In this document: positions 1,775-50,322 of the stretch, piece after piece
Layout of the letters: every line of letters starts with the position of its first letter
Numbering within the stretch: the first letter of the stretch is position 1
DNA from: Myxococcota bacterium
GTDB lineage: Bacteria; Myxococcota_A; UBA9160; UBA6930
Length of the DNA: 64,000 bases
Assembly (NCBI GenBank): GCA_965223415.1
Contig: OZ245002.1
Span: forward strand, 1,952,001 to 2,016,000
Direction of reading: 5' to 3'
Program-made: the position numbers and the translations under genes
The notes under the pieces: model-generated
Databases searched by the model: none
Seen by the model: the letters and a program-made list of their open reading frames with translations, nothing else
Told to the model about the DNA's origin: nothing

Positions 1775-3044
1775 CAGGCTGCTGAAATTCGGCGCTGAGA
1801 GGCGCCAGAACGCCAGAGGGCGCGGGTCCCCGCGGCCCGCTCGGCTCGCTCTTCGATCCCGGAAGTGATCCGGGGTACCTCGTCTCGATGCAGGTGCGTC
1901 ATGTGACCTCTACGAGGTTGCGTATGCGGACCAGGTTGTAGACCGCCGCCGTGAAGACGAACATCCACCCGACCCGATCCGTGCCCCGGTGACGCGTCTT
2001 TCGCATTCCCCCGACCGTCTTCATCCAACCGAAGCACTCCTCGATCCGCTTGCGTTTGTGCTGGCTGATCGCGTAGCCCTCGTGACGGACCGTGCGACCG
2101 TCGATCCGGCTGGCCCGATTCGTCGTGTGCTGCGCCACGTGCGGCGTGATGTTGCGCTTCCGGCAGCCCGCCACGAACTCCTCGGTGTCGTAGCCCTTGT
2201 CCCCGCCCAGCGTGATCCGGCGCCTTCCCGCCACGTCCTCCGCCATCTCCAGCGCTGCCAGCCGCTCGGCGTAGCCATCGGCCTCCGTCAGCAGCGCCGA
2301 GACGATCAGGCCGTTGCGGTTCTCCGTCAGCAGATGGCCCATGTAGGCCAGCTGCGAGGTCTGGCCCTTCTTGCGCGCCAGCCGCGCCTCGGGATCCGTC
2401 GTCGATTCGTGCGTCGCGTTGCTCCGCCGCTCTCCCCGAAAGTTCACCGTCGGGTTGCCCGGATCGTCGTCTCCGTCGTCCCCCGAGCCGTCCTTCGCCC
2501 GGAAGCTCTTCTGGCTCGCCCACGCCTCGATCAGCGTGCCATCCACCGTGAAGTGCTCCGACGACAGAAGGCCGTGGTCCTTTCCCTGCGCCAGCACCGC
2601 CTCAAAGAACGCCTCCGCCACGTCCCCTTCCAGCAGCCGGTCCCGGTTCTTCGTGAAGACCGTCGGGACCCAGACCGCATCCTCCATCCCCAGCCCTACG
2701 AACCAACGGAACAGCAGGTTGTACTCGAGCTGCTCCATCAGCTGGCGCTCACTCCGGATCGAGTAGAGCACCTGCAGCAACAGAGCCCGCAGCAGCCGCT
2801 CCGGTGGGATCGACGGCCGGCCCGTCGACGCGTAGAGCTCCGAGAACCGCCGAGACAGGCCCCTCAGCGCCTCGTCCACCATCGCCCGCATGGGGCGAAG
2901 CGGATGATCCTCCGGAATCCGCGTCTCCAGCGAGACGTAGCTGAACATCGAACCCTGCTCTCGGTCGCTGCCGCGCATCCTCTCTCCCCCCGACCCATCT
3001 TCTACCATCGAGAACACGGAAACGCAGGGTTTTTCAGCAGCCTG
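1775..3044 (-). mobile_element. IS5-family insertion sequence, about 1270 bp, apparently intact
   Basis: 13-bp terminal inverted repeats CAGGCTGCTGAAA (1775-1787) / TTTCAGCAGCCTG (3032-3044), flanked by CTAG at 1771-1774 and 3045-3048 (target duplication); single transposase ORF. Confidence 0.92.
1899..2978 (-). CDS. IS5-family DDE transposase
   Basis: MRGSDREQGSMFSYVSLE start, GRPSIPPE, YNLLFRWF, VDGT, GDKGYD, KRKRIEECFGW; purine-rich RBS before ATG 2978. Confidence 0.93.
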   Translation of the reverse strand: MRGSDREQGSMFSYVSLETRIPEDHPLRPMRAMVDEALRGLSRRFSELYASTGRPSIPPERLLRALLLQVLYSIRSERQLMEQLEYNLLFRWFVGLGMEDAVWVPTVFTKNRDRLLEGDVAEAFFEAVLAQGKDHGLLSSEHFTVDGTLIEAWASQKSFRAKDGSGDDGDDDPGNPTVNFRGERRSNATHESTTDPEARLARKKGQTSQLAYMGHLLTENRNGLIVSALLTEADGYAERLAALEMAEDVAGRRRITLGGDKGYDTEEFVAGCRKRNITPHVAQHTTNRASRIDGRTVRHEGYAISQHKRKRIEECFGWMKTVGGMRKTRHRGTDRVGWMFVFTAAVYNLVRIRNLVEVT

Positions 3045-10051: not shown

Positions 10052-11397
10052 GCTTTGGCCTTCTTCATGTGCGCGTCGATGAAGCCCGTGTCGTAGGTGC
10101 CTTCCTGGAATACCGGATGCCGGGCCAGGCGCCGGTGGAAGGCCAGGGAGGTGTGGATGCCCTCCACCTCGAACTCGTCCGCGGCTCTCGCCAGCCGCGC
10201 GACGGCCTCGGCCCGGTCGCGCCCCCACACCACGAGCTTCGCGAGCATCGGGTCGTAGTGGACGGTCACCTCGCAGCCCGCCGCGACGCCGCTGTCGACC
10301 CGCACGCCTGGCCCGCCCGGCTCGCGCCAGGCCGTGAGCGTCCCCGGCGAGGGCAGGAAGCCCTTGTCCGGGTTCTCGGCGTAGACCCGCGCCTGGATCG
10401 CGTGGCCGCGGATCGCCAGCTCGTCCTGGGTGAAGGAGAGGGGCTCGCCGGCGGCGATGCGGATCATCTCCTTCACCAGATCGATGCCGGTGATCGCCTC
10501 GGTGACGGTGTGCTCCACCTGGATGCGGGTGTTCATCTCCAGGAACCAGAAGCGGTCGTCCGGGTCCACCAGGAACTCGAAGGTGCCGACGCTCTGGTAG
10601 CCGAGGGCCTTCGTCGCCGTCACGGCCGCCTCACCCATGCGCGCCCGCAGCTCGTCGCTCATGCGCGGCGCGGGCGCCTCCTCGACGAGCTTCTGGTGGC
10701 GGCGCTGGATGGAGCACTCGCGCTCGAAGACGTGGACGGCGTTCCCGTGGGTGTCCGCCAGCACCTGGATCTCCACGTGGCGGGGGTGCTCGATCCACTT
10801 CTCGACGTAGAGGCCGTCGTCGCCGAAGGCGCTCTGGGCTTCGCTGCGGGCGCGGGGGAGGGCCTTGGCGAGCTGCTCGGGGCTCTTCACCAGGCGCAGG
10901 CCCTTGCCGCCGCCGCCGGCGCTGGCCTTCACCATCACCGGGTAGCCGATCGCCTCGCAGCGCGCGGCCACCGCTTCGTCGTCCAGGCGCTCGGTGGCGC
11001 CGGGCACGATCGGAACCCCGGCCGCCTCCATGGTCTGGCGCGAGAGCACCTTGTCGCCCATGCGCCGCATCACCTCGGCCTCGGGCCCGATGAAGACGAG
11101 CCCCGCGGCGCGGCAGGCGTCGGCGAAGTCGGCGTTCTCCGAGAGGAAGCCGTAGCCCGGGTGCACGGCGTCGGCGCCGCAGCGCTTCGCGATCCCGACG
11201 ATCCGGTCGGCCACGAGATACGACTCGCGGGCCGGAGCCGGGCCGCAGGGATGGGCCTCGTCGGCGAGCCGCACGTGGGGGGCCGCCGCGTCGGCCTCGG
11301 AGTGGATGGCGGCGGTCGCGACCCCCAGCTCGCGGCACGCCCGGATCACCCGAACGGCGATCTCCCCGCGATTCGCGACGAGGATCTTCTTGAACAG
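10048..11397 (-). CDS. accC: Biotin carboxylase subunit (AccC-like, no BCCP domain)
   Basis: (L/M)FKKILVANRGEIAVRVIR N-terminus, HPGYGFLSEN, GGGGKG, RECSIQRRHQK, EMNTRIQVEH; apparent CTG start at 11397. Confidence 0.88.
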   Translation of the reverse strand: MFKKILVANRGEIAVRVIRACRELGVATAAIHSEADAAAPHVRLADEAHPCGPAPARESYLVADRIVGIAKRCGADAVHPGYGFLSENADFADACRAAGLVFIGPEAEVMRRMGDKVLSRQTMEAAGVPIVPGATERLDDEAVAARCEAIGYPVMVKASAGGGGKGLRLVKSPEQLAKALPRARSEAQSAFGDDGLYVEKWIEHPRHVEIQVLADTHGNAVHVFERECSIQRRHQKLVEEAPAPRMSDELRARMGEAAVTATKALGYQSVGTFEFLVDPDDRFWFLEMNTRIQVEHTVTEAITGIDLVKEMIRIAAGEPLSFTQDELAIRGHAIQARVYAENPDKGFLPSPGTLTAWREPGGPGVRVDSGVAAGCEVTVHYDPMLAKLVVWGRDRAEAVARLARAADEFEVEGIHTSLAFHRRLARHPVFQEGTYDTGFIDAHMKKAKA

Positions 11398-26203: not shown

Positions 26204-27076
26204 ATGTTCGAAGGAGTGCTGACGGCGCTGGTCACCCCGTTCCGGGACGGAGCGGTGGACGAACGCGCCCTCCAGGAGCTGGTGGAGCTGCAGATCGGCG
26301 CCGGCGTGGACGGACTGGTGCCCTGCGGCTCGACCGGCGAGTCCGCGACCCTGAGCCACGCGGAGCACCGCCGGGTGGTCGAGGTGGTGGTGGCGGCGGC
26401 CCGGGGACGCGTGCCGGTCGTGGCGGGCACCGGCTCCAACTCGACCCGCGAGGCGGTGGAGCTGACCCGTCACGCCAAGGAGGCGGGTGCCGACGGCGCG
26501 CTCCTGATCTCGCCCTACTACAACAAGCCCACACCCGACGGCATCGTCCAGCACTACGCGGCGATCGCCGCGGAGACGGCGTTCCCGTTGATCGTCTACA
26601 ACATCCCGGGGCGCACGGCCTCGAACATCCTCCCGGAGACCTTCGCCCGGCTCGCCGAGATCGAGCAGGTGGTGGCGGTGAAGGAATCCTGCGGCGACAT
26701 GGACCAGGTGGCGCACCTGATCGCGGCCACGCCGGACGACTTCCGGGTGCTCTCCGGCGACGACTGGGGCACGCTGCCGATCCTTGCGCTGGGTGGCGCC
26801 GGCGTGATCTCGACGACCGGAAACGTGGCGCCCTCGGACATGGTGGAGCTGGTCCGGGCCTACAAGGCCGGCGATCTGGGGCGCGCGCGGGAGGCCTACT
26901 ACCGGCTGCTGCCGCTGTTCGACGCGCTCTTCTGCGAGACCAACCCGATCCCCGTGAAGGCGGCCCTGGCGCTGCGGGGGCTGTGCACCGACGAGATCCG
27001 GCTGCCGCTCACCCCGATCACGCCGCCGAACCGCGAGCGACTGCAGGTCGCCCTGAAAGAGTTCGGTCTCCTGTGA
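26204..27076 (+). CDS. dapA: 4-hydroxy-tetrahydrodipicolinate synthase
   Basis: GSTGE, PYYNKP, YNIPGRT, VKES, ETNPIPVK. Confidence 0.95.
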   Translation: MFEGVLTALVTPFRDGAVDERALQELVELQIGAGVDGLVPCGSTGESATLSHAEHRRVVEVVVAAARGRVPVVAGTGSNSTREAVELTRHAKEAGADGALLISPYYNKPTPDGIVQHYAAIAAETAFPLIVYNIPGRTASNILPETFARLAEIEQVVAVKESCGDMDQVAHLIAATPDDFRVLSGDDWGTLPILALGGAGVISTTGNVAPSDMVELVRAYKAGDLGRAREAYYRLLPLFDALFCETNPIPVKAALALRGLCTDEIRLPLTPITPPNRERLQVALKEFGLL

Positions 27077-35642: not shown

Positions 35643-36598
35643 GGCGCGAAGGGCAGGGGGGCGACCTCGGCCTCGGCTTCGCCGCCATCCACCCGCAGCC
35701 GCGCGCCGGGCGTGGCCAGCTCCGCCTTCACGTAGCCGATGCCGATCGGCCCGAGGGCGGGCGAGTCGAGCGCGCTCGTCACCTCGCCCGCCCGGCGGCC
35801 CTCGTGGGCCAGCTCGGTGCCCGGTGCCGGCGGCGTGCCGGGGAAGCGCAGGCCGACGAGCAGATGGTTCGCGCGGCCGCGGCTGCGCATCCGCGCCACG
35901 ACCTCCTGGCCGGTGTAGCAGCCCTTCGTCTCGGAGACGGCGGCGTCCAGGCGCGCCTCGGCGGGCAGCACGGACTCGTCGAGCTCCCGGCCCATGAGCG
36001 GCTCTCCCATCTCGACCCGTAGGCACTCGGCGGCGTCGGGCTCGCCGTCCACCAGGCCGTGGCCCGCACCTGCCTCGCGCAGCGCCCGGGCGACCGCCTC
36101 GCCGTGGCCGGCCGGGACGAAGAGCTGGAGGCCGGGCAGCCCGGTCAGGCTGAAGGCCGCGACGCGGACCTCCTGGCCCGCGAGCTCGGCGTGGCAGCTC
36201 CCGCCGGCCTCCGGCACCGGGAGGATCGGCGGCAGCCGGCCGCCTTCGACGGACCAGCGCTCGAAGTCGTCGCTGCGATCCGCGAGGGTGACGTCGTCAG
36301 CGATGACGAAGCCCTCGAGGCGCTCGATCACGGGCCCGGCGGCGGCGCGCGGAAGCTCGAGCCAGAAGGCGTCGTCCGTGCACAGGACGTTCAGGTCCGC
36401 GGTGATGCGGCCCTGGCGGGTGAGCAGCAGCGCGCGGCAGCCGTCGCCCTGCGCGAGCGTCGTGACGTCGTTGGTCAGCATGCCGTCGAGCCAACGCACG
36501 CGCTCGCTCCCGCCCACCTCGATGACGCCGCGGTCGGGGCGCGGGAACAGGCCCGCACCGCTGCGGATCGCCGCCACCCGCTCGGCGAGGCCCGTCAC
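35639..36598 (-). CDS. ygfZ: YgfZ/GcvT-family folate-binding protein
   Basis: KGCYTGQEVVAR signature; GcvT-like N- and C-terminal regions. Confidence 0.82.
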   Translation of the reverse strand: MTGLAERVAAIRSGAGLFPRPDRGVIEVGGSERVRWLDGMLTNDVTTLAQGDGCRALLLTRQGRITADLNVLCTDDAFWLELPRAAAGPVIERLEGFVIADDVTLADRSDDFERWSVEGGRLPPILPVPEAGGSCHAELAGQEVRVAAFSLTGLPGLQLFVPAGHGEAVARALREAGAGHGLVDGEPDAAECLRVEMGEPLMGRELDESVLPAEARLDAAVSETKGCYTGQEVVARMRSRGRANHLLVGLRFPGTPPAPGTELAHEGRRAGEVTSALDSPALGPIGIGYVKAELATPGARLRVDGGEAEAEVAPLPFAP

Positions 36599-37617
36599 GA
36601 AGCGTGCTCCGGCAGCCGCGCCACCGTCAGGTCCGCACGCGGCTCCGGCAGCGCGGGAGGTCCGTAGCGAGCGCGCACCGCCTCCTCCTGGCGCGCGTGC
36701 CAGTCGTCCCAGCGCTCTTGCATGACATCGAAATCGCGCTCGTTGTCCACGTCGACAGCGCAACCGCCACCCTCGGTGATGACGAAGCGGAAGCGGGTCG
36801 CCAGTAGCGCGCCCACCGCCCGCTCGACCCGCTCCAGGGCGATCCAGCTGCGCAGCCGATCCGCGAGCCAGCGCCAGCGGTGACGGTCGAACACGCCGGC
36901 CAGGTGCATCAGGCCGTAGTAGCCGAGTACGCGCAGGCCGCCGCCTTCGTCCCAGAAGATCCGCCACGCCAGCGCCAGCGCGTTGCCGAGTTGCTTCTGG
37001 TAGCGGTGCTCGTACATCTCCTCGATGTAGTTGCGTTTGCCGAGCTTCGGCGGCCGCACCAGGTGCAGGTTGCTCTGGCGCACGCGCCCCTCCCGCAGGT
37101 TGAAGTACGCCATCTCGATGCCCGGCGCGTCGGCGGTCGGGTAGAAGGGCGCCATGCTCTCCTCGGTCACGAGCCCGAGGGAGTAGTCGACGTCCTGGGC
37201 GATGGACTGCTGGATGAACGCGGAGATCTCCTGGGAGCTCGCCATCGGGATGTCCGAGGAGAGGAAGAGGACGAGCTGCTCCGCCTCCTCCGGCGTCGGA
37301 TCCCGGCCGGCGGGCCCGGCCCCGGGCAGGAGCCGCCGGTACGTCTCCCAGACGTTCTCGAGCAGGTTGCGGAACTGCGGCACCACCGCGAGCGGCTTCA
37401 CGAGCTGCCCCTCGAGCTCGCGCCGGAAGATCTCCTCCAGCCGCTCCGCATTCCCGACGACCCAGACCTCGCTCACCTCGGGCACCCGCTGCAGCACCGC
37501 CACCGCATGGGAAACGAGGCTCATCCCCCCCAGCTCGAGGTACGCCTTGTTGCCCCCGTAGACCGCCTTGGCGGCCCGGCCGTCCCCAGCCGCAACGATG
37601 GCAGGCACTTGTTCCAT
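36595..37617 (-). CDS. MobA-like nucleotidyltransferase-fold protein
   Basis: IVAAGDGR...NKAYLEL, SSDIP, VDVD. Confidence 0.75.
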   Translation of the reverse strand: MEQVPAIVAAGDGRAAKAVYGGNKAYLELGGMSLVSHAVAVLQRVPEVSEVWVVGNAERLEEIFRRELEGQLVKPLAVVPQFRNLLENVWETYRRLLPGAGPAGRDPTPEEAEQLVLFLSSDIPMASSQEISAFIQQSIAQDVDYSLGLVTEESMAPFYPTADAPGIEMAYFNLREGRVRQSNLHLVRPPKLGKRNYIEEMYEHRYQKQLGNALALAWRIFWDEGGGLRVLGYYGLMHLAGVFDRHRWRWLADRLRSWIALERVERAVGALLATRFRFVITEGGGCAVDVDNERDFDVMQERWDDWHARQEEAVRARYGPPALPEPRADLTVARLPEHAS

Positions 37618-37630
37618 AGAACGAACCAGC

Positions 37631-37675
37631 GTACCCCGCCCCGAAGTACCCGGCCTCGAAGTACCCCGCCCCGAG
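37631..37675. repeat. 3 x 15-bp tandem repeat
   Basis: GTACCCCGCCCCGAA / GTACCCGGCCTCGAA / GTACCCCGCCCCGAG. Confidence 0.85.
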
Positions 37676-37791
37676 GGAAGGCTGCGAGCGGCCGAAGGCC
37701 GCAAGCGAAGCCCGAGGCAAGCGCCCTAGGCGCGCGCAGCGAGGCCCCGTGAGCCTTCGGCCCAGGGGAGCCGAGCGAAGCTCGCACGAAA

Positions 37792-37941: not shown

Positions 37942-38388
37942 ATGGCCGTGGAGATCCGGCGAATCCTCGTCCCGATCGACTTCTCCGAGCATGCCGAGCC
38001 CGTCCTGGAGTGGGCCGCGCACCTGGCGGAGGAGCACGGCAGCGAGGTGATCCTCCTCCACGCCTACCACCTGCCGGTCGAGTTCCAGCAGCTCGAGGGC
38101 GCCTACCTCCCCCAGGACTTCTGGGACACGGTCAAGGACGAGGGACGCCAGGGCCTGGCCGACCACGAAGAGGCCCTGCGCACCCGCGGCCTGCAGGTGC
38201 GCTCGGTCGTCCGAGAGGGCTATCCCGCCACCGTGATCGAGGAGGAGGCCGCCGCCGAGCAGGTGGACCTGATCGTGCTGGGCACCCACGGCCTCTCCGG
38301 CCTCAAGCACCTGCTCCTCGGCAGTATCGCCGAGCGCGTCGTCCAGAAAGCCCCCTGCCCCGTCCTCACCGTCAAGCTCCCCGACTGA
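37942..38388 (+). CDS. Universal stress protein
   Basis: ILVPIDFS, DLIVLGTHG..G...LLGSIAERVVQKAPCPVL. Confidence 0.94.
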   Translation: MAVEIRRILVPIDFSEHAEPVLEWAAHLAEEHGSEVILLHAYHLPVEFQQLEGAYLPQDFWDTVKDEGRQGLADHEEALRTRGLQVRSVVREGYPATVIEEEAAAEQVDLIVLGTHGLSGLKHLLLGSIAERVVQKAPCPVLTVKLPD

Positions 38389-38389
38389 C

Positions 38390-38458
38390 GTGAGACAAAG
38401 GGACGTTCCTGACTGTCTCACGCTTCGTGAGACAGTCAGGAACGTCCCTTTGTCTCAC
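38390..38458. repeat. Perfect palindrome, 33-bp arms and 3-nt loop, with nested inverted repeats
   Basis: GTGAGACAAAGGGACGTTCCTGACTGTCTCACG-CTT-exact reverse complement. Confidence 0.95.
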
Positions 38459-40061
38459 TCTTCTCGCCGAGCTTGCCGGCGGGGTGGCGGGCGTGGTAGG
38501 CGGCGCGGGTGAAGCCGCGCTCCTCTTCGAGGGCGGCGGAGAGGGCGGCAAGGACGAGGAGCTCGGCGGCGACGCTGGCGCGGGGGGCCAGGCCGAGGCC
38601 GCCGCCTTCGCGCGCGACGCCGGCCTCGAGCACCACCTCGGCCTCCGCAGCGAGGGGGGACGACGCATCGCCGGTGACGGCGATGATCCTCGCCCCGAGG
38701 CCCCGCGCCGCCCGGGCCGTCGCCGTGAGTTCGGTGGCGCCGCTGTTGCTGATGGCGATCACTACGTCGCCCGCCACGATCTGGCCGGCGCTGCCGTGCA
38801 CCGCCTCGGTGCCGTGCAGGAACGTCGCAGGGGTTCCCGTCGAGCTGAGCAGGGAGGCCGCGTAGTGGGCCACGTGCTCGGGCTTGCCGATGCCGGTGAC
38901 GTGCACGCGGCCACCGGCCGCTTCGCAGGCGCGGATGCAGGCCACCGCTGCGTCAAAGGCGCTCCGGTCGATGCGCTCGCGAAGCGCAGCGAGCTCCTCG
39001 ACGGCCACGTCGAAAGCGCGTAGGGCGCGCTCGGCGGACGGGGTGGCCGCGCGGGTCACGGCCTCGGGCAGCGCCAGCTCCACCGGCGCGCCGTCGTAGA
39101 GCTCGCGCACCCGCGCGAGGGCGGCGGCCGGATCGTCGGGAAAGGCGCCGAGCTTCTCGACGCAGGCTGCGCCGCAGGCGCAGCCGAGCCGCGCCGCATC
39201 CTCCCAGCCCAGCCCCTGGGCCAGCGCCACCAGCAGCCCGCCCAGGAAGGCGTCGCCGGCTCCGGTGGTGTCGACCACCTCCTTCGCCGGGCGTGCCGGC
39301 ACACGCAGCGCGGTGCCCTCGGCCGCGAGTGCGCAGCCCGCCGCGCCGTCGGTCACCACCACGGCGCCGCTCCCGTAGCGCTCGCGCAGGGCCTGGGCCA
39401 CGGCCAGGGCATCGCCGGCGGCCTCGGGCACGAGCTCCGCCGCGGCGGCCTTGGCCGGCTTCAGCACGTCGGCCGCCTGTAGCAGCGCCTCGAGAGTCTC
39501 GGCGTCGCCGAGGCCCGGCACGGCGTCGGAGGGTGGCACGTCCAGGTCCAGCAGCGTCGGCACGCCGGCCTCCCGCGCGATCGTCAGCACGGCGAGGGCG
39601 GTCTCGAGGGGCAGCTGCGACACCTCGGTGGTCACCCGCGCGGCGCCGCCGATGAACGCCGCGTGGTGCTCGCGCACGAAGGCCGGCGTCGTCTCGGAGG
39701 TGGCGCCCGGGGCCATGTAGATGGCGCGCTCGCCTTCGTCGTCGACGAAGATGTCGGCTAAGGTGCTGGCCGAGCCGTCGAGCACGATGCGCCGCTCGAT
39801 GCCGAGGCGGTCCATCGCTGCGCGGAGGTAGCGCCCGCCGGCGTCGTCCGCCTGCCGTCCGAAGATGCCGGTCGGCAGTCCGAGAGCCGCGGCCCAGCCG
39901 AGATGGTTCAGCACCACGCCGCCGACCCTCTGCTCCTCCGTCACGCCCTCCCGGGCGTGGATCATGCCCTTCTCCTCGCCTCCGAGGATGCGCCGCACGC
40001 GGCGGATGCGATCCACCGCCATCGAACCGATGCCGATGGTGCGGCCGTGGCGGTCGCTCAC
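38436..40061 (-). CDS. PfkB-family sugar kinase fused to a KdsD/KpsF-like SIS isomerase
   Basis: GGVVLN, DLDVP, VTDGAAG, DTTGAGDAF; then VTGIGKPEH..SSTGTP..EAVHG..ISNSG and HPAGKLG. Confidence 0.88.
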   Translation of the reverse strand: MSDRHGRTIGIGSMAVDRIRRVRRILGGEEKGMIHAREGVTEEQRVGGVVLNHLGWAAALGLPTGIFGRQADDAGGRYLRAAMDRLGIERRIVLDGSASTLADIFVDDEGERAIYMAPGATSETTPAFVREHHAAFIGGAARVTTEVSQLPLETALAVLTIAREAGVPTLLDLDVPPSDAVPGLGDAETLEALLQAADVLKPAKAAAAELVPEAAGDALAVAQALRERYGSGAVVVTDGAAGCALAAEGTALRVPARPAKEVVDTTGAGDAFLGGLLVALAQGLGWEDAARLGCACGAACVEKLGAFPDDPAAALARVRELYDGAPVELALPEAVTRAATPSAERALRAFDVAVEELAALRERIDRSAFDAAVACIRACEAAGGRVHVTGIGKPEHVAHYAASLLSSTGTPATFLHGTEAVHGSAGQIVAGDVVIAISNSGATELTATARAARGLGARIIAVTGDASSPLAAEAEVVLEAGVAREGGGLGLAPRASVAAELLVLAALSAALEEERGFTRAAYHARHPAGKLGEKSETKGRS

Positions 40062-41146
40062 TCGTGGGCTCCCAGGTCCGGCGTCACCCAGGTGGGCACG
40101 AGCAGCTCGGCAGCGAGGCCGCGCACCTCCTCGAACATGGCGTCGAAGCGCTCGGCATCCGGGCGGGCGAGGGCCGGTGTGCCCTCGGCCACGGCGTCGC
40201 TCGAGATCACGCCCCGCGCGAGCAGCGCGCGCTTCAGGCACGCGATCGTCCGCTTGCCGCCGGCCGCGCGGGTGCCGACCCGGAACGCCTCGACCACCCG
40301 CTGCACCCGGTCCATCCGTTCCGCGTCGCCGGCGCGGCACAGCTGCCAGGCCCGCGCCCACTCCCGCGGCATCGCGTTCGCCGGGCCCGCCACCACGCCG
40401 ATCGGAAGACCGCCGCGCATCCGGTAGCGCTGCCAGTGCTCGGAGAGCGACCCGAGCCAGCCGCTCCGCGGCCGGAAGATCTCGAAGATCAGCATGGCGT
40501 TGCCCACGTAGATGCCGAACTCGCCGCGCTCGCGGAAGCCGGCGGCCGCCTTGGTGTAGTTGCCGAGCACCTTCTTCGACGCGCTCACCTTGATGCCGCG
40601 CACGAAGTCGAGGCGTGAGAGCGCCTTCACCTGGCGCGTGCGGATGTGCGGGATCGCCGGGTCCGCGGCGATGTCGGCGTTGTCGTACAGGTACACCGGA
40701 ATGCGTCGGGTGCGCGAATCGAGCAGGTCCGCGACGTCCCGCGCGACGAAGCGCACTGGATCGCCCAGGCCGCGGATCGAGAGCGGCGCCAGCACCGCCG
40801 CATCCACTCCCGCGGCGATCGCGGCGTCCAGGTTCTCGAGGGTCTCCTCGGGCGTGCGCGCGGTGACGCCGGCCCAGGCCTCTACCGGGCGCCCGAGGCC
40901 CGCGTTGGCCTTGGCCACCTCCTCGGCGCAGACCTGGATCACCCGTCGCTGGGTGGCTGCGCCGATGCGATCCCACTCGCCCGTGGTGCCCGCCGAGAAC
41001 ACCACGTCCGCCCCGTAGCCGTCCTGCACCACGAAGCGCACGACCGAGCGAAGGTCGTCCTCGATCAGCCGTCCGTCGTCACAGAGCGGCGTCACCACGG
41101 GCACCGAAAGCCCGGGTCTCGGCCGCGCGTCTTCGACCGTCCGCAT
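40058..41146 (-). CDS. DHDPS/NAL-superfamily class I aldolase (divergent)
   Basis: VPVVTP, GTTGE, LYDN, GIKVS (Schiff-base Lys); GTGA-coupled to the kinase-SIS gene. Confidence 0.8.
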   Translation of the reverse strand: MRTVEDARPRPGLSVPVVTPLCDDGRLIEDDLRSVVRFVVQDGYGADVVFSAGTTGEWDRIGAATQRRVIQVCAEEVAKANAGLGRPVEAWAGVTARTPEETLENLDAAIAAGVDAAVLAPLSIRGLGDPVRFVARDVADLLDSRTRRIPVYLYDNADIAADPAIPHIRTRQVKALSRLDFVRGIKVSASKKVLGNYTKAAAGFRERGEFGIYVGNAMLIFEIFRPRSGWLGSLSEHWQRYRMRGGLPIGVVAGPANAMPREWARAWQLCRAGDAERMDRVQRVVEAFRVGTRAAGGKRTIACLKRALLARGVISSDAVAEGTPALARPDAERFDAMFEEVRGLAAELLVPTWVTPDLGAHE

Positions 41147-41276
41147 GCCGGAACAGTAGCGAGAACGGAAATCGGAAAGAACTTCCCCGTCTCTTCCGAT
41201 TCTCCGTCCCGATCCCGGGCACCCCCCGGAAGACGGCTCGCCAGGGGCGCGCAGCGAGCCGCAGGCGAGCGAAGGG

Positions 41277-41882
41277 TCAGACGGACTCGAAGAAGGTTCC
41301 TACGGGCACACCCAGGGCGGTGGCGACCTTGTAGAGGGTCATCACCGAGGCGGCGCTCTTGCCGAGCTCGATCTGGGAGATGAGGCTCACCGAGAGGCCG
41401 GTGCGGTTCGCCACCTGCTTCAGGGTGAGGGTCAGCTCGTGCCGGCGGCTGCGGATGCGCTCGCCGATGGCGGCATTCAGGCGCTCCTCCGGGTCGACCG
41501 CCAGCCCGTGCTCCTTCACCGCAGCGGAGAGGACGGGGCGCAGCTCGTGCACGGCGGAGGGGCGCTTCAGGTAGTCGAAGGCCCGGTGCTTCATGGTCGC
41601 CACCGCCGCCTCGACGCTCGGCTCGTCGGTCATGCAGATGACGCAGAGGTCGTCGTCCACCGAGCGGATCTGTTGGAGCAGCCCGATGCCCTCCTCACCG
41701 GGGCGGCCCAGGTCGAGGAGCACCATCTGGTAGCGCCCGTCCTTCACCTCGCGGGGCGCCCGGGCCGGCTCCTCGAGGGCGGTGGCCTCGTAGCCCTCCG
41801 CCGCCAGGAAATGGGCGAGCTGGCCGCGCAGGTGCACGTCCGGCTCCACGACGAGCACATTCAAGGGCTGGCTTCCTGCCAT
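41277..41882 (-). CDS. Response regulator with a C-terminal XRE-type HTH
   Basis: REC (VVEPD, LLDL, AFDYLKRP) plus TLKQVANRTGLSVSLISQIELG. Confidence 0.88.
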   Translation of the reverse strand: MAGSQPLNVLVVEPDVHLRGQLAHFLAAEGYEATALEEPARAPREVKDGRYQMVLLDLGRPGEEGIGLLQQIRSVDDDLCVICMTDEPSVEAAVATMKHRAFDYLKRPSAVHELRPVLSAAVKEHGLAVDPEERLNAAIGERIRSRRHELTLTLKQVANRTGLSVSLISQIELGKSAASVMTLYKVATALGVPVGTFFESV

Positions 41883-41984
41883 GGTTCTTCCGACCTCCCG
41901 TCCATCGAATCCCCTACTGATTCGGCTGGAGGCGGAACGACTTGAGGGAAAACCCCGAGTCGAAGACCCTGTTTTCCCGGGTGC

Positions 41985-44011
<2,027 letters not shown>

Positions 44012-44794
44012 TCACTCGACGGCGTGCCTCGGGACGACCACCGGACCCTCGGGTCCGGAGAGCACCTCCGCCTCGACGCCGAAGGCGCGGCGCAGGGCGT
44101 CGGGAAGCAGCACCGCTTCCGGCGTGCCCGCGGCGAGCACGCAGCCCTGGGCGAGTAGCGCGATGCGGTCGGCGGCGCGCACCGAGAGCGCCAGGTCGTG
44201 GGAGACGACCAGCGCGCTGCGCCCCTCCGCCGCCCACTCGCGCAGCAGCGCCAGCAGCTGGAGACGGCGGGCCAGATCGAGGTGGGCCGTCGCCTCGTCG
44301 AGCAGCAGGATGACCGGATCCTGGGCCAACGCCCGCGCCACCATCACGAGCTGCCGTTCGCCGCCGGAGAGCTCGAGGATGGAGCGCTCGGCCAGGGCGA
44401 GGAGACCCAGCCGTTCGAGGGCCGCGTGGGCGATGCGGCGGTCCTTCGCCGACTCGAAGCCCAGCAGGCCCTGGTGGGGCGTGCGGCCCATCAGCACCAC
44501 CTCGTCCACCCGGAACGGGAAGGGCACCGTCGTCTCCTGCGGAACCAGCGCCATCTGCCGGGCGAGCCCTCGGCGCCCGTGGGCCGCGAGGGGCCGCCCG
44601 TCCAGGCGGATGTCGCCCCGATCCGGCGCGAGCAGCCCGCAGGCGATCCGCAGCAGCGTGGTCTTGCCGGCGCCGTTGCGCCCGGCCAGCAGCAGCACCT
44701 CGCCGTGCCCGAGCTGGAGGTCGACGCCGGCCAGCACCGAACGGCCGGCGAGATCCACGCCGACGCCGGAGAGCGTGAGCAGGGCGGCGCTCAC
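44012..44794 (-). CDS. ABC transporter ATP-binding protein (BtuD/FecE family)
   Basis: GRNGAGKTT, LSGGERQ, LLLDE, SHDL. Confidence 0.92.
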   Translation of the reverse strand: MSAALLTLSGVGVDLAGRSVLAGVDLQLGHGEVLLLAGRNGAGKTTLLRIACGLLAPDRGDIRLDGRPLAAHGRRGLARQMALVPQETTVPFPFRVDEVVLMGRTPHQGLLGFESAKDRRIAHAALERLGLLALAERSILELSGGERQLVMVARALAQDPVILLLDEATAHLDLARRLQLLALLREWAAEGRSALVVSHDLALSVRAADRIALLAQGCVLAAGTPEAVLLPDALRRAFGVEAEVLSGPEGPVVVPRHAVE

Positions 44795-49635: not shown

Positions 49636-50253
49636 ATGGGCCTCTACGACATCTACGAGCAACGCGTCTTCCCCCGCTTCCTCGACCGGGCGATGAAGCA
49701 GTTCGGCCCCCAGCGCGAGCCCACCCTCGCCGAGGCGCGGGGCGACGTGCTGGAGATCGGCTTCGGCACCGGCCTCAACCTCCCGCACTACCCCGAGGGC
49801 GTGGAGAAGCTCTCGACGGTGGATCCGATGGACGCCCTCCAGGAGAAGGTGCAGGAGCGCATCGACCGGGTGCCCTTCCCGGTCGAACGCCACCACCTGC
49901 CCGCCGACGGCGGCCTGCCCTTCGATCGCGGCCGCTTCGACACCGTGACCGTCACCTGGACCCTGTGCACCATCCCGGACGCCGGCGCCGCTCTGACGGA
50001 GATGCACCGGGTCCTCAAGCCCGAGGGCAGGCTGCTGTTCATCGAGCACGGCCGCAGCGACGACGCGAGGATCGCCCGCTGGCAGGACCGCCTGAACCCG
50101 ATCTGGAACGTGATCGGCTGCGGCTGCAACCTGAACCGCTCCACCGCCGACCTGGTCGAGCGCGCCGGCTTCCAGCTCGAGCGCCTCGAGCAGCTCATCG
50201 AGGGCCCGCGCATCTTCGCCACCCTCTACCGCGGAGCCGCCCTACCGAAATGA
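49636..50253 (+). CDS. Class I SAM-dependent methyltransferase
   Basis: VLEIGFGTG, FDTV...TLCT, VLKPEG..LFIEH; alternative starts 49615 and 49630. Confidence 0.9.
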   Translation: MGLYDIYEQRVFPRFLDRAMKQFGPQREPTLAEARGDVLEIGFGTGLNLPHYPEGVEKLSTVDPMDALQEKVQERIDRVPFPVERHHLPADGGLPFDRGRFDTVTVTWTLCTIPDAGAALTEMHRVLKPEGRLLFIEHGRSDDARIARWQDRLNPIWNVIGCGCNLNRSTADLVERAGFQLERLEQLIEGPRIFATLYRGAALPK

Positions 50254-50322
50254 AGAAACGGGGCCAGAGTTAAGAATTCAGTTCTGGAAGAACTGAATTC
50301 TTAACTCTGGCCCCGTTTCTTC
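50252..50322. repeat. Perfect AT-rich palindrome, 34-bp arms and 3-nt loop
   Basis: GAAGAAACGGGGCCAGAGTTAAGAATTCAGTTCT-GGA-exact reverse complement. Confidence 0.95.

Follow-up and report, generated by a model that had tools for sequence, protein, structure and literature searches.

A translationally coupled aldolase and PfkB kinase-isomerase fusion in a Myxococcota bacterium: a candidate module for the metabolism of a 3-deoxy-ulosonic acid

A 64,000-nucleotide chromosomal segment of a Myxococcota bacterium (GenBank assembly GCA_965223415.1, contig OZ245002.1, positions 1,952,001 to 2,016,000 of the forward strand; 71% GC), in the following called the window, encodes an aldolase and, directly downstream, a fusion protein that joins a PfkB-type kinase to a SIS-type sugar phosphate isomerase (Table 1). 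A role of this gene pair in the salvage of the 8-carbon 3-deoxy-ulosonic acid Kdo, the signature sugar of lipopolysaccharide (LPS), is tentatively considered below. The two genes are translationally coupled by the overlap of the stop codon of the aldolase gene with the start codon of the fusion gene, and a GGGAG sequence is located a few bases 5' of the latter. Upon re-reading of both open reading frames (ORFs), the limits 38436..41146 that a first-pass annotation had given for the pair have been found to be exact, and equally the coupling that it had proposed is borne out by the GTGA overlap. Judged by a third-position GC content of 0.89-0.94 in the two frames and by more than 1500 database relatives for each protein (1558 at E<=1e-5 for the aldolase and 1790 at E<=1e-10 for the fusion), both are real genes; the database names of their products are generic only.

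Table 1. Features of the aldolase and PfkB-SIS locus and of its surroundings (window coordinates)
Feature	Position	Strand	Details
Aldolase gene	40058..41146	minus	ATG start at 41146, TGA stop 40060-40058; 362 aa
PfkB-SIS fusion gene	38436..40061	minus	GTG start 40061-40059, stop 38436-38438; 541 aa
GTGA overlap	40058..40061	minus	aldolase stop codon and fusion start codon; sequence read directly
GTTGE motif of aldolase	40976-40990	minus	conserved in alignment of 30
Tyr154 codon of aldolase	40685-40687	minus	YLYDN motif
Lys186 codon of aldolase	40589-40591	minus	putative Schiff-base lysine
PfkB (ribokinase-like) domain	39141..40031	minus	fusion residues 11-307; Pfam PF00294, 140.7 bits (cutoff 25.8)
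Catalytic Asp270 codon of kinase	39252-39254	minus	DTTGAGD anion hole
Single SIS domain, arabinose-5-phosphate isomerase type	38460..39017	minus	fusion residues 349-534
Enolase gene	42689..44011	minus	upstream neighbour of aldolase; TIGR01060, 657 bits
Response regulator gene	41277..41882	minus	upstream of aldolase; REC and XRE-type HTH (Pfam Response_reg and HTH_3)
dapA	~26207-27076	plus	PF00701, 331.6 bits, full length; adjoins dapF
Perfect hairpin	38392..38456		30-nt arms extending to 33-bp stem; between convergent fusion and usp genes

By sequence and modelled fold, the aldolase is a divergent class-I enzyme of the dihydrodipicolinate synthase (DHDPS)/N-acetylneuraminate lyase (NAL) superfamily, a superfamily recognised by a Schiff-base lysine, a catalytic tyrosine and a GxTGE pyruvate-binding motif. 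The Pfam DHDPS family PF00701 is matched with 33.4 bits (gathering cutoff 22.1), whereby residues 12-118 alone align. An AlphaFold2 model built from 30 homologues reached a predicted local distance difference test (pLDDT) value of 86.5 and a predicted template modelling score of 0.88, and DHDPS, NAL and YagE are the only enzymes among the matches listed by Foldseek against the PDB, with template modelling (TM) scores by target length of 0.78-0.85. N-acetylneuraminate lyase of Corynebacterium glutamicum (5c54) is the top match in structure (TM score by target length 0.83, approximately 22% identity) and equally the top PDB match in sequence (E 3.5e-7). The catalytic triad is kept, with G53, T54-E57 (TTGE), Y152-N156 (YLYDN), G184, K186 and V187 invariant among the 30 aligned homologues and I185 and S188 at least 90% conserved, and the enzyme very probably forms a Schiff base with pyruvate. 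Besides these general features, a family-specific loop, HIRTR, is found, of which H167, I168, R169 and T170 are invariant and R171 is at least 90% conserved in the same alignment.

The divergence of this aldolase, its retained GTTGE, tyrosine and lysine, an internal insertion and the presence of a separate genuine dapA had all been noted in the first-pass annotation, and each of these observations stands. The aldolase is approximately 60 residues longer than the DapA protein of the window, so placed in the alignment that aldolase residue 245 comes to lie opposite DapA residue 188, and the shorter family members P0293 and P0304 lack approximately 18 aldolase residues near positions 229-247. Interpretation of the gene as a DapA paralogue for lysine synthesis has been rejected with a score of 30.1 bits against the DapA model TIGR00674, which has an equivalog cutoff of 206.15. 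Similarly weak are the matches to the NCBIfam models of HpaI-like enzymes, of the archaeal 2-keto-3-deoxy-(6-phospho)gluconate (KD(P)G) aldolase (NF040954, 26.6 bits) and of KdgD. Sequence comparison places the clade far from every characterised enzyme; the family is small and remote, with 405 proteins at E<=1e-3 and 61 at E<=1e-30 among 1.84 billion representatives searched.

The isomerase part of the fusion is recognised by the Pfam SIS model at residues 385-507 (57.3 bits). Assessed alone against NCBIfam models, the SIS domain scores 118 bits with KpsF, 116.7 with GutQ and 114.7 with KdsD, but only 41.3 bits with HxlB (PHI) and at most 18.5 bits with GmhA; a grouping with PHI or GmhA, which had been considered beforehand, thus gives way to a grouping with the arabinose-5-phosphate isomerases (APIs). 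The curated full-length cutoffs of the API models (203.7, 481 and 505) are missed because the part that can be aligned, the SIS half, covers no more than profile positions 1-152 of 268. In fact, the fusion ends where the CBS region of KdsD begins and a Pfam scan detected no CBS domain in it, as expected for the KdsD/KpsF-type SIS domain without CBS domains that had been predicted. The best sequence matches in the PDB are a single-domain isomerase (5uqi, 111.8 bits), the SIS domain of Escherichia coli KdsD (2xhz, 87.4 bits) and a Bacteroides fragilis protein (3etn, 84 bits), and sequence identity amounts to 43.6% with E. coli KdsD over 140 amino acids (E 1.6e-20) and to 39.9% with E. coli GutQ. 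With E. coli GmhA as a query, no match was obtained in the window, and marginal matches (47-48 aa, E ~1e-5) occurred in four related loci.

Residues K393, H422, E444 and H526 of the fusion align with K59, H88, E111 and H193 of E. coli KdsD, which we take to be its catalytic residues, although no confirmation of this was obtained from the one open paper searched. K393, H422 and H526 do not vary among 20 fusion homologues, E444 is conserved in at least 90% of them, and every SIS motif listed at first pass is present and conserved in the same 20 proteins, namely GIGKPEH, SSTGTPATFLHGTEAVHG, SNSG and HPAGKLG. That the SIS domain would interconvert arabinose 5-phosphate (A5P) and ribulose 5-phosphate is the firmest inference of the analysis. 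To our knowledge, Kdo is the only fate of A5P that is established in bacterial metabolism. The resemblance to KdsD, GutQ and KpsF thus extends over sequence identity, four active-site counterparts and the best hidden Markov model (HMM) and PDB matches, whereas the lack of a CBS pair, the unmet full-length cutoffs, the fusion of the SIS domain to the C-terminus of a PfkB kinase and the coupling to an aldolase gene set it apart; SIS domains without CBS are also found in the single-domain APIs 5uqi and 3etn. Succession of a SIS isomerase and a PfkB kinase is equally a feature of the GmhA and HldE/HldA heptose pathway, but a GmhA/HldE-type heptose module has been rejected on the above scores against the GmhA models. 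Rejected as well was an Amadori module of the FrlD/FrlB type, as fructoselysine 6-kinase was the sole Frl model seen and no FrlB-type deglycase occurred among the SIS matches.

The kinase, for which the fusion to the SIS domain in one polypeptide had been correctly described, carries the GXGD motif DTTGAGDAF, with D264, T266-D270 and A271-F272 invariant and T265 at least 90% conserved in the 20 fusion homologues. It scores 105.5 bits with the ribokinase model TIGR02152, missing the equivalog cutoff of 299.65, and with other NCBIfam models 89.4 bits (IolC) and 58.9 bits (2-keto-3-deoxygluconate (KDG) kinase). Ribokinases are also its best PDB matches in sequence (6znx, 8cqx, 6ilr and 1gqt) and the top Foldseek matches of its structural model, a model of moderate quality (pLDDT 72.2). 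Ribokinases are pentose kinases, and D-arabinose is the C2 epimer of ribose; closest to ribokinases in sequence and modelled structure, the domain fits a D-arabinose kinase.

Considering these three activities, whose substrates, order and direction we infer, a catabolic or salvage route for Kdo which follows the logic of sialic acid breakdown is possible and has been ranked first, tentatively, among the readings considered. Along this route, cleavage of Kdo by the aldolase would yield pyruvate and D-arabinose, and phosphorylation of D-arabinose by the kinase would yield A5P. From A5P the SIS domain would form ribulose 5-phosphate as an input of the pentose phosphate pathway, or A5P might be left for reuse in Kdo synthesis. 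Kdo as the substrate of the aldolase is a guess. Sialic acid catabolism comprises the aldolase NanA, the kinase NanK and the epimerase NanE. As in that pathway, a NAL-superfamily aldolase, with N-acetylneuraminate lyase as its best structural match, would release pyruvate and a sugar to be processed successively by a kinase and an isomerising enzyme. On the other hand, the kinase belongs to the PfkB and not to the ROK family, a SIS aldose-ketose isomerase takes the place of the epimerase NanE as third enzyme, the aldolase shows the low identity given above as well as insertions, and the implied sugar has five carbons instead of six. The first-pass annotation had arranged the activities in the same chain, and this proposal holds with respect to the API-type SIS domain, the NAL-fold aldolase, the ribokinase-like kinase and their linkage, but its strict linearity is called into question by loci without the kinase, by fused relatives with dead aldolases and by the missing NXXE motif of the kinase, as described below.

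Conservation of the linkage has been assessed in one genome per species, where 405 pattern matches were obtained, 380 of which encode a relative; the content of the best 80 loci was read by tblastn with the proteins of the window as queries. Downstream of the aldolase gene, PfkB and SIS are present in 70 loci, PfkB only in 5 loci that end inside PfkB, and SIS only in 3 loci (L009, L010 and L078), while 2 loci end at the aldolase. In consequence, wherever the downstream sequence is complete, SIS follows the aldolase (73/73 loci), in 70/73 with PfkB in between, so that the survey for a conserved trio suggested at first pass has returned one, within one lineage. All three aldolase motifs are present in 79/80 loci. 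The stop codon of the aldolase gene could be read in its context in 79 loci, with GTGA in 40, ATGA in 22 and TTGA in 5 (67/79 together), and CTGA in 11 and TTAA in one of the remaining 12. The gene order radA, polyprenyl synthase, FecCD-type ATP-binding cassette (ABC) transporter, enolase, optionally the response regulator (43/80 loci), aldolase and PfkB-SIS is kept across loci, with enolase upstream of the aldolase in 75/80 loci and less than 50 nt away in several (for example L011, L023 and L049).

The carriers of the module are an uncultured soil and marine bacterial lineage of the Myxococcota type. According to the record titles, all 80 loci derive from metagenome-assembled genomes (MAGs) or assemblies of uncultured organisms, and no title names a cultured strain. 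The labels of the loci read Myxococcota or Deltaproteobacteria, and some loci that bear the names Spirochaetales, Chloroflexota or Proteobacteria nest within the same clade. L007, L032, L034, L044, L051, L053-L055, L064, L068, L069, L077, L078 and L080 carry titles that name Spirochaetales, Spirochaetaceae or Chloroflexota; such taxonomic labels seem at odds with the nesting of their aldolases and their synteny within the Myxococcota-labelled clade.

Features of the neighbourhood, of the kinase and of distant relatives, assembled here and in the following paragraphs together with the readings that they might favour instead, weigh against the Kdo salvage route. The 80 loci represent one MAG lineage, and since the wider gene order is also kept within this lineage, much of the linkage reflects shared ancestry; the synteny is, therefore, not independent evidence. 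Furthermore, the setting is a housekeeping one (radA, polyprenyl synthase and enolase), and the aldolase is approximately as conserved as enolase, with a median identity to the window of 71.3% compared to 74.6% for enolase, 66.2% for SIS and 64.7% for PfkB, although selection of the loci by aldolase similarity biases the aldolase value upward. Such a setting and such slow evolution are unusual for a salvage pathway. They might rather favour a biosynthetic function, in which the SIS domain acts as the housekeeping KdsD, the aldolase condenses pyruvate and A5P to Kdo-8-phosphate without KdsA and the kinase serves as an accessory entry. The 380 genome stretches with a relative, the adjoining enolase gene (kdsA presumably neighbours eno in Pseudomonas) and the loci with aldolase and SIS but no kinase, which would make up a self-contained two-step path, are in line with this function. 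However, pyruvate aldolases of the superfamily favour cleavage at cellular concentrations, and the phosphoenolpyruvate-dependent KdsA is presumably universal in Kdo producers; the biosynthetic function is rated very unlikely. More doubtful still is the specific proposal that the lineage makes Kdo-8-phosphate by a pyruvate-dependent class-I aldolase together with its own CBS-less A5P isomerase, in replacement of KdsA, with the ribokinase-like domain feeding free pentose into the A5P pool.

Equally, no sugar-acid transporter and no Kdo-releasing hydrolase have been observed in the conserved neighbourhood of the window and the 80 loci, and the ABC system that flanks the genes belongs to the FecCD/periplasmic-binding-protein-2 type. 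When E. coli KdsA, KdsC, LptA and LptC served as tblastn queries, neither the window nor any of the 80 loci (approximately 1 Mb in all) gave a match, a result uninformative on whole genomes. Leads from protein language-model look-alikes point to relatives of the aldolase in Binatota and Verrucomicrobiota and to PfkB-SIS proteins in Acidobacteriota, Bacillota and Actinomycetota; the matches in Bacillota and Actinomycetota, phyla without Kdo in which PfkB-SIS may occur, score 0.88-0.90 and are leads only. The lack of Kdo or LPS genes nearby and the possible clusters in Gram-positive phyla would be compatible with a different compound, in which case another 2-keto-3-deoxy sugar acid would be the substrate of the aldolase and a phosphosugar different from A5P that of the API-like SIS domain. 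The remoteness of the aldolase clade and the failure to reach every equivalog HMM cutoff would agree with this assignment. The active-site residues and the overall similarity of the SIS domain are, however, specifically API-like, and these features persist in fused relatives with a PfkB-SIS part 39-40% identical to that of the window, so that a different compound appears rather unlikely.

With respect to the kinase, the NXXE motif of the PfkB family is missing, with P-A-K-A-A found opposite P-N-E-T-E of E. coli RbsK, and its asparagine is equally missing in the 20 homologues and in distant fusions. The corresponding region of the fusion (residues ~200-208, window ~39438-39464) contains the invariant residues K201 and P202 as well as K204, for which conservation is at least 90%. 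Three of the 73 complete loci (L009 8001-9706, L010 5317-7001 and L078 4112-5810) possess an aldolase gene with all motifs kept, followed by a stand-alone SIS gene of approximately 196 amino acids with no PfkB nearby, and the linear chain of aldolase, kinase and isomerase is broken in these loci unless the kinase is encoded elsewhere. As judged from the tree, loss of the kinase may have happened repeatedly, with L009 and L010 being sisters and L078 standing separate; the starred branches force one loss only.

The three domains also occur as single proteins with a domain order equal to the gene order at the loci: aldolase-PfkB-SIS in P0264 (895 aa) and P0292 (861 aa), aldolase-SIS in P0285 (562 aa) and P0275 (544 aa), and aldolase-PfkB in the apparently truncated P0307 (607 aa). 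In a search of close relatives, three longer fused forms came up. The five fused proteins belong to a distinct, well-supported branch of the family (Shimodaira-Hasegawa-like approximate likelihood ratio test value 100) and lend independent support to a functional tie of the domains. At the same time, P0264 is the sole fused form of the five with all three aldolase motifs; P0292, P0285, P0275 and P0307 have lost the Schiff-base lysine and the tyrosine, and also GTTGE where this region aligns, which is not the case in P0307. Among stand-alone proteins, P0249 and P0250 lack the lysine, with P0249 also devoid of GTTGE and the tyrosine motif and P0250 retaining FLYDN. The SIS motifs are intact wherever fused forms carry a SIS domain, and in P0292 the PfkB-SIS part can be aligned with 40% identity to that of the window with GXGD and SIS motifs kept. 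A dead aldolase next to a preserved PfkB-SIS part in P0292 fits a kinase product that feeds the isomerase.

Loss of the lysine in four of the five fused relatives and in P0249 and P0250 with the SIS motifs remaining intact, a kinase without NXXE and a SIS domain without CBS domains could also be viewed as signs that the aldolase-like and kinase-like parts mainly regulate or scaffold the isomerase in place of the CBS pair of KdsD. Hardly any probability is assigned to this function, as the clade of the window keeps the aldolase motifs in all but one of the loci with core residues invariant in the 30 homologues, and the catalytic aspartate of the kinase GXGD motif is invariant in the 20 homologues.

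The kinase-less loci with intact aldolase motifs and the very existence of aldolase-SIS fusions, in which the product of the aldolase could be the phosphorylated substrate of the SIS domain, bring to mind a semi-phosphorylative order of steps. In this order the kinase would phosphorylate Kdo to Kdo-8-phosphate, the aldolase would cleave Kdo-8-phosphate to pyruvate and A5P and the SIS domain would form ribulose 5-phosphate. The semi-phosphorylative Entner-Doudoroff pathway employs KDG kinase and the archaeal KD(P)G aldolase and likewise pairs a PfkB-family kinase with a DHDPS-family pyruvate aldolase; KDG and IolC kinases in the one family and KD(P)G aldolase in the other thus provide precedents, each matched weakly by the proteins of the window, and the basic residues of the HIRTR loop could, to judge from the sequence, bind phosphate. 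But the scores stay far below the cutoffs, the Entner-Doudoroff variant has no isomerase, the kinase of the window resembles ribokinases more than KDG kinases in HMM score, PDB sequence and fold, and the aldolase-SIS fusions examined carry dead aldolase domains; the semi-phosphorylative order is consequently considered quite unlikely. A complex prediction for the aldolase with the SIS domain scored 0.00 and has been counted neither for nor against any reading. As a speculation, the various architectures could be reconciled by an A5P-centred hub with the isomerase as the constant part and kinase and aldolase as alternative entries or exits.

Downstream of the fusion gene, one arm of the perfect hairpin (Table 1) holds the last 6 codons of the fusion gene. 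With a folding energy of -71.7 kcal/mol (z -12.8) and calls by a terminator scan on both strands, this hairpin looks like a bidirectional terminator. The search for it returned 2 matches compared to 0 expected. A second long perfect hairpin, likewise intergenic and with 34-nt arms, is located at 50252-50322, downstream of a gene for a methyltransferase. In L001, the closest relative, the corresponding site 3' of the SIS gene (10700-10800) is occupied by a perfect palindrome of 50 nt that is unrelated in sequence, and none was seen in four other relatives. A small terminator-like hairpin with a T-rich tail (41173-41189, minus) lies in the 130-nt gap between the response regulator gene and the aldolase start. 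Over 38200-44200, Rfam gave sub-threshold microRNA-like matches to the hairpin only and no riboswitch, and no promoter was called by a sigma-70-like scan of the same interval.

Among other genes of the window, one encoding approximately 231 amino acids (41988-42680, minus) in the interval between enolase and response regulator has a product with an N-terminal hydrophobic segment and no Pfam family; three neighbouring ORFs scanned gave no Pfam family. A 369-amino acid protein encoded at 36598-37704 (minus), kept downstream in 30/80 loci, has a weakly MobA/IspD-like nucleotidyltransferase N-terminus (35 bits) and no sequence relative in the PDB at E<=0.1. In an otherwise housekeeping region, a DDE transposase gene (DUF772 and DDE_Tnp_1; 1902-3044, minus) is situated beside a gene for a large immunoglobulin-repeat protein.

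The Kdo salvage route predicts two activities, Kdo aldolase (EC 4.1.2.23) and EC 2.7.1.54, which we take to be D-arabinokinase. In a 2007 survey (PMC1940265), both are listed as validated orphan activities that are ranked 'difficult' and have no sequence attached, and a 2025 paper (PMC12199768) cites the endogenous Kdo aldolase of E. coli by its EC number and by biochemical papers from 1966-1990 alone. In the literature searched, which did not cover subscription journals, no paper on the aldolase-PfkB-SIS trio or on a PfkB-API fusion has been found, in keeping with the first-pass annotation, which had known of no characterised PfkB-KdsD fusion. If the Kdo salvage route holds true, sequences would become available for the two activities recorded as orphans in that survey, and the breakdown or recycling of the signature sugar of LPS would gain its first genetic route, in a lineage with relatives among the predators of Gram-negative bacteria. 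If, on the other hand, the biosynthetic function holds true, the module would provide an alternative to KdsA, an essential enzyme of LPS synthesis. Either way, a compact, highly conserved and generically annotated family, with naturally fused domains, cases of kinase loss and aldolases that have decayed to pseudoenzymes, offers itself as a target for enzymology.

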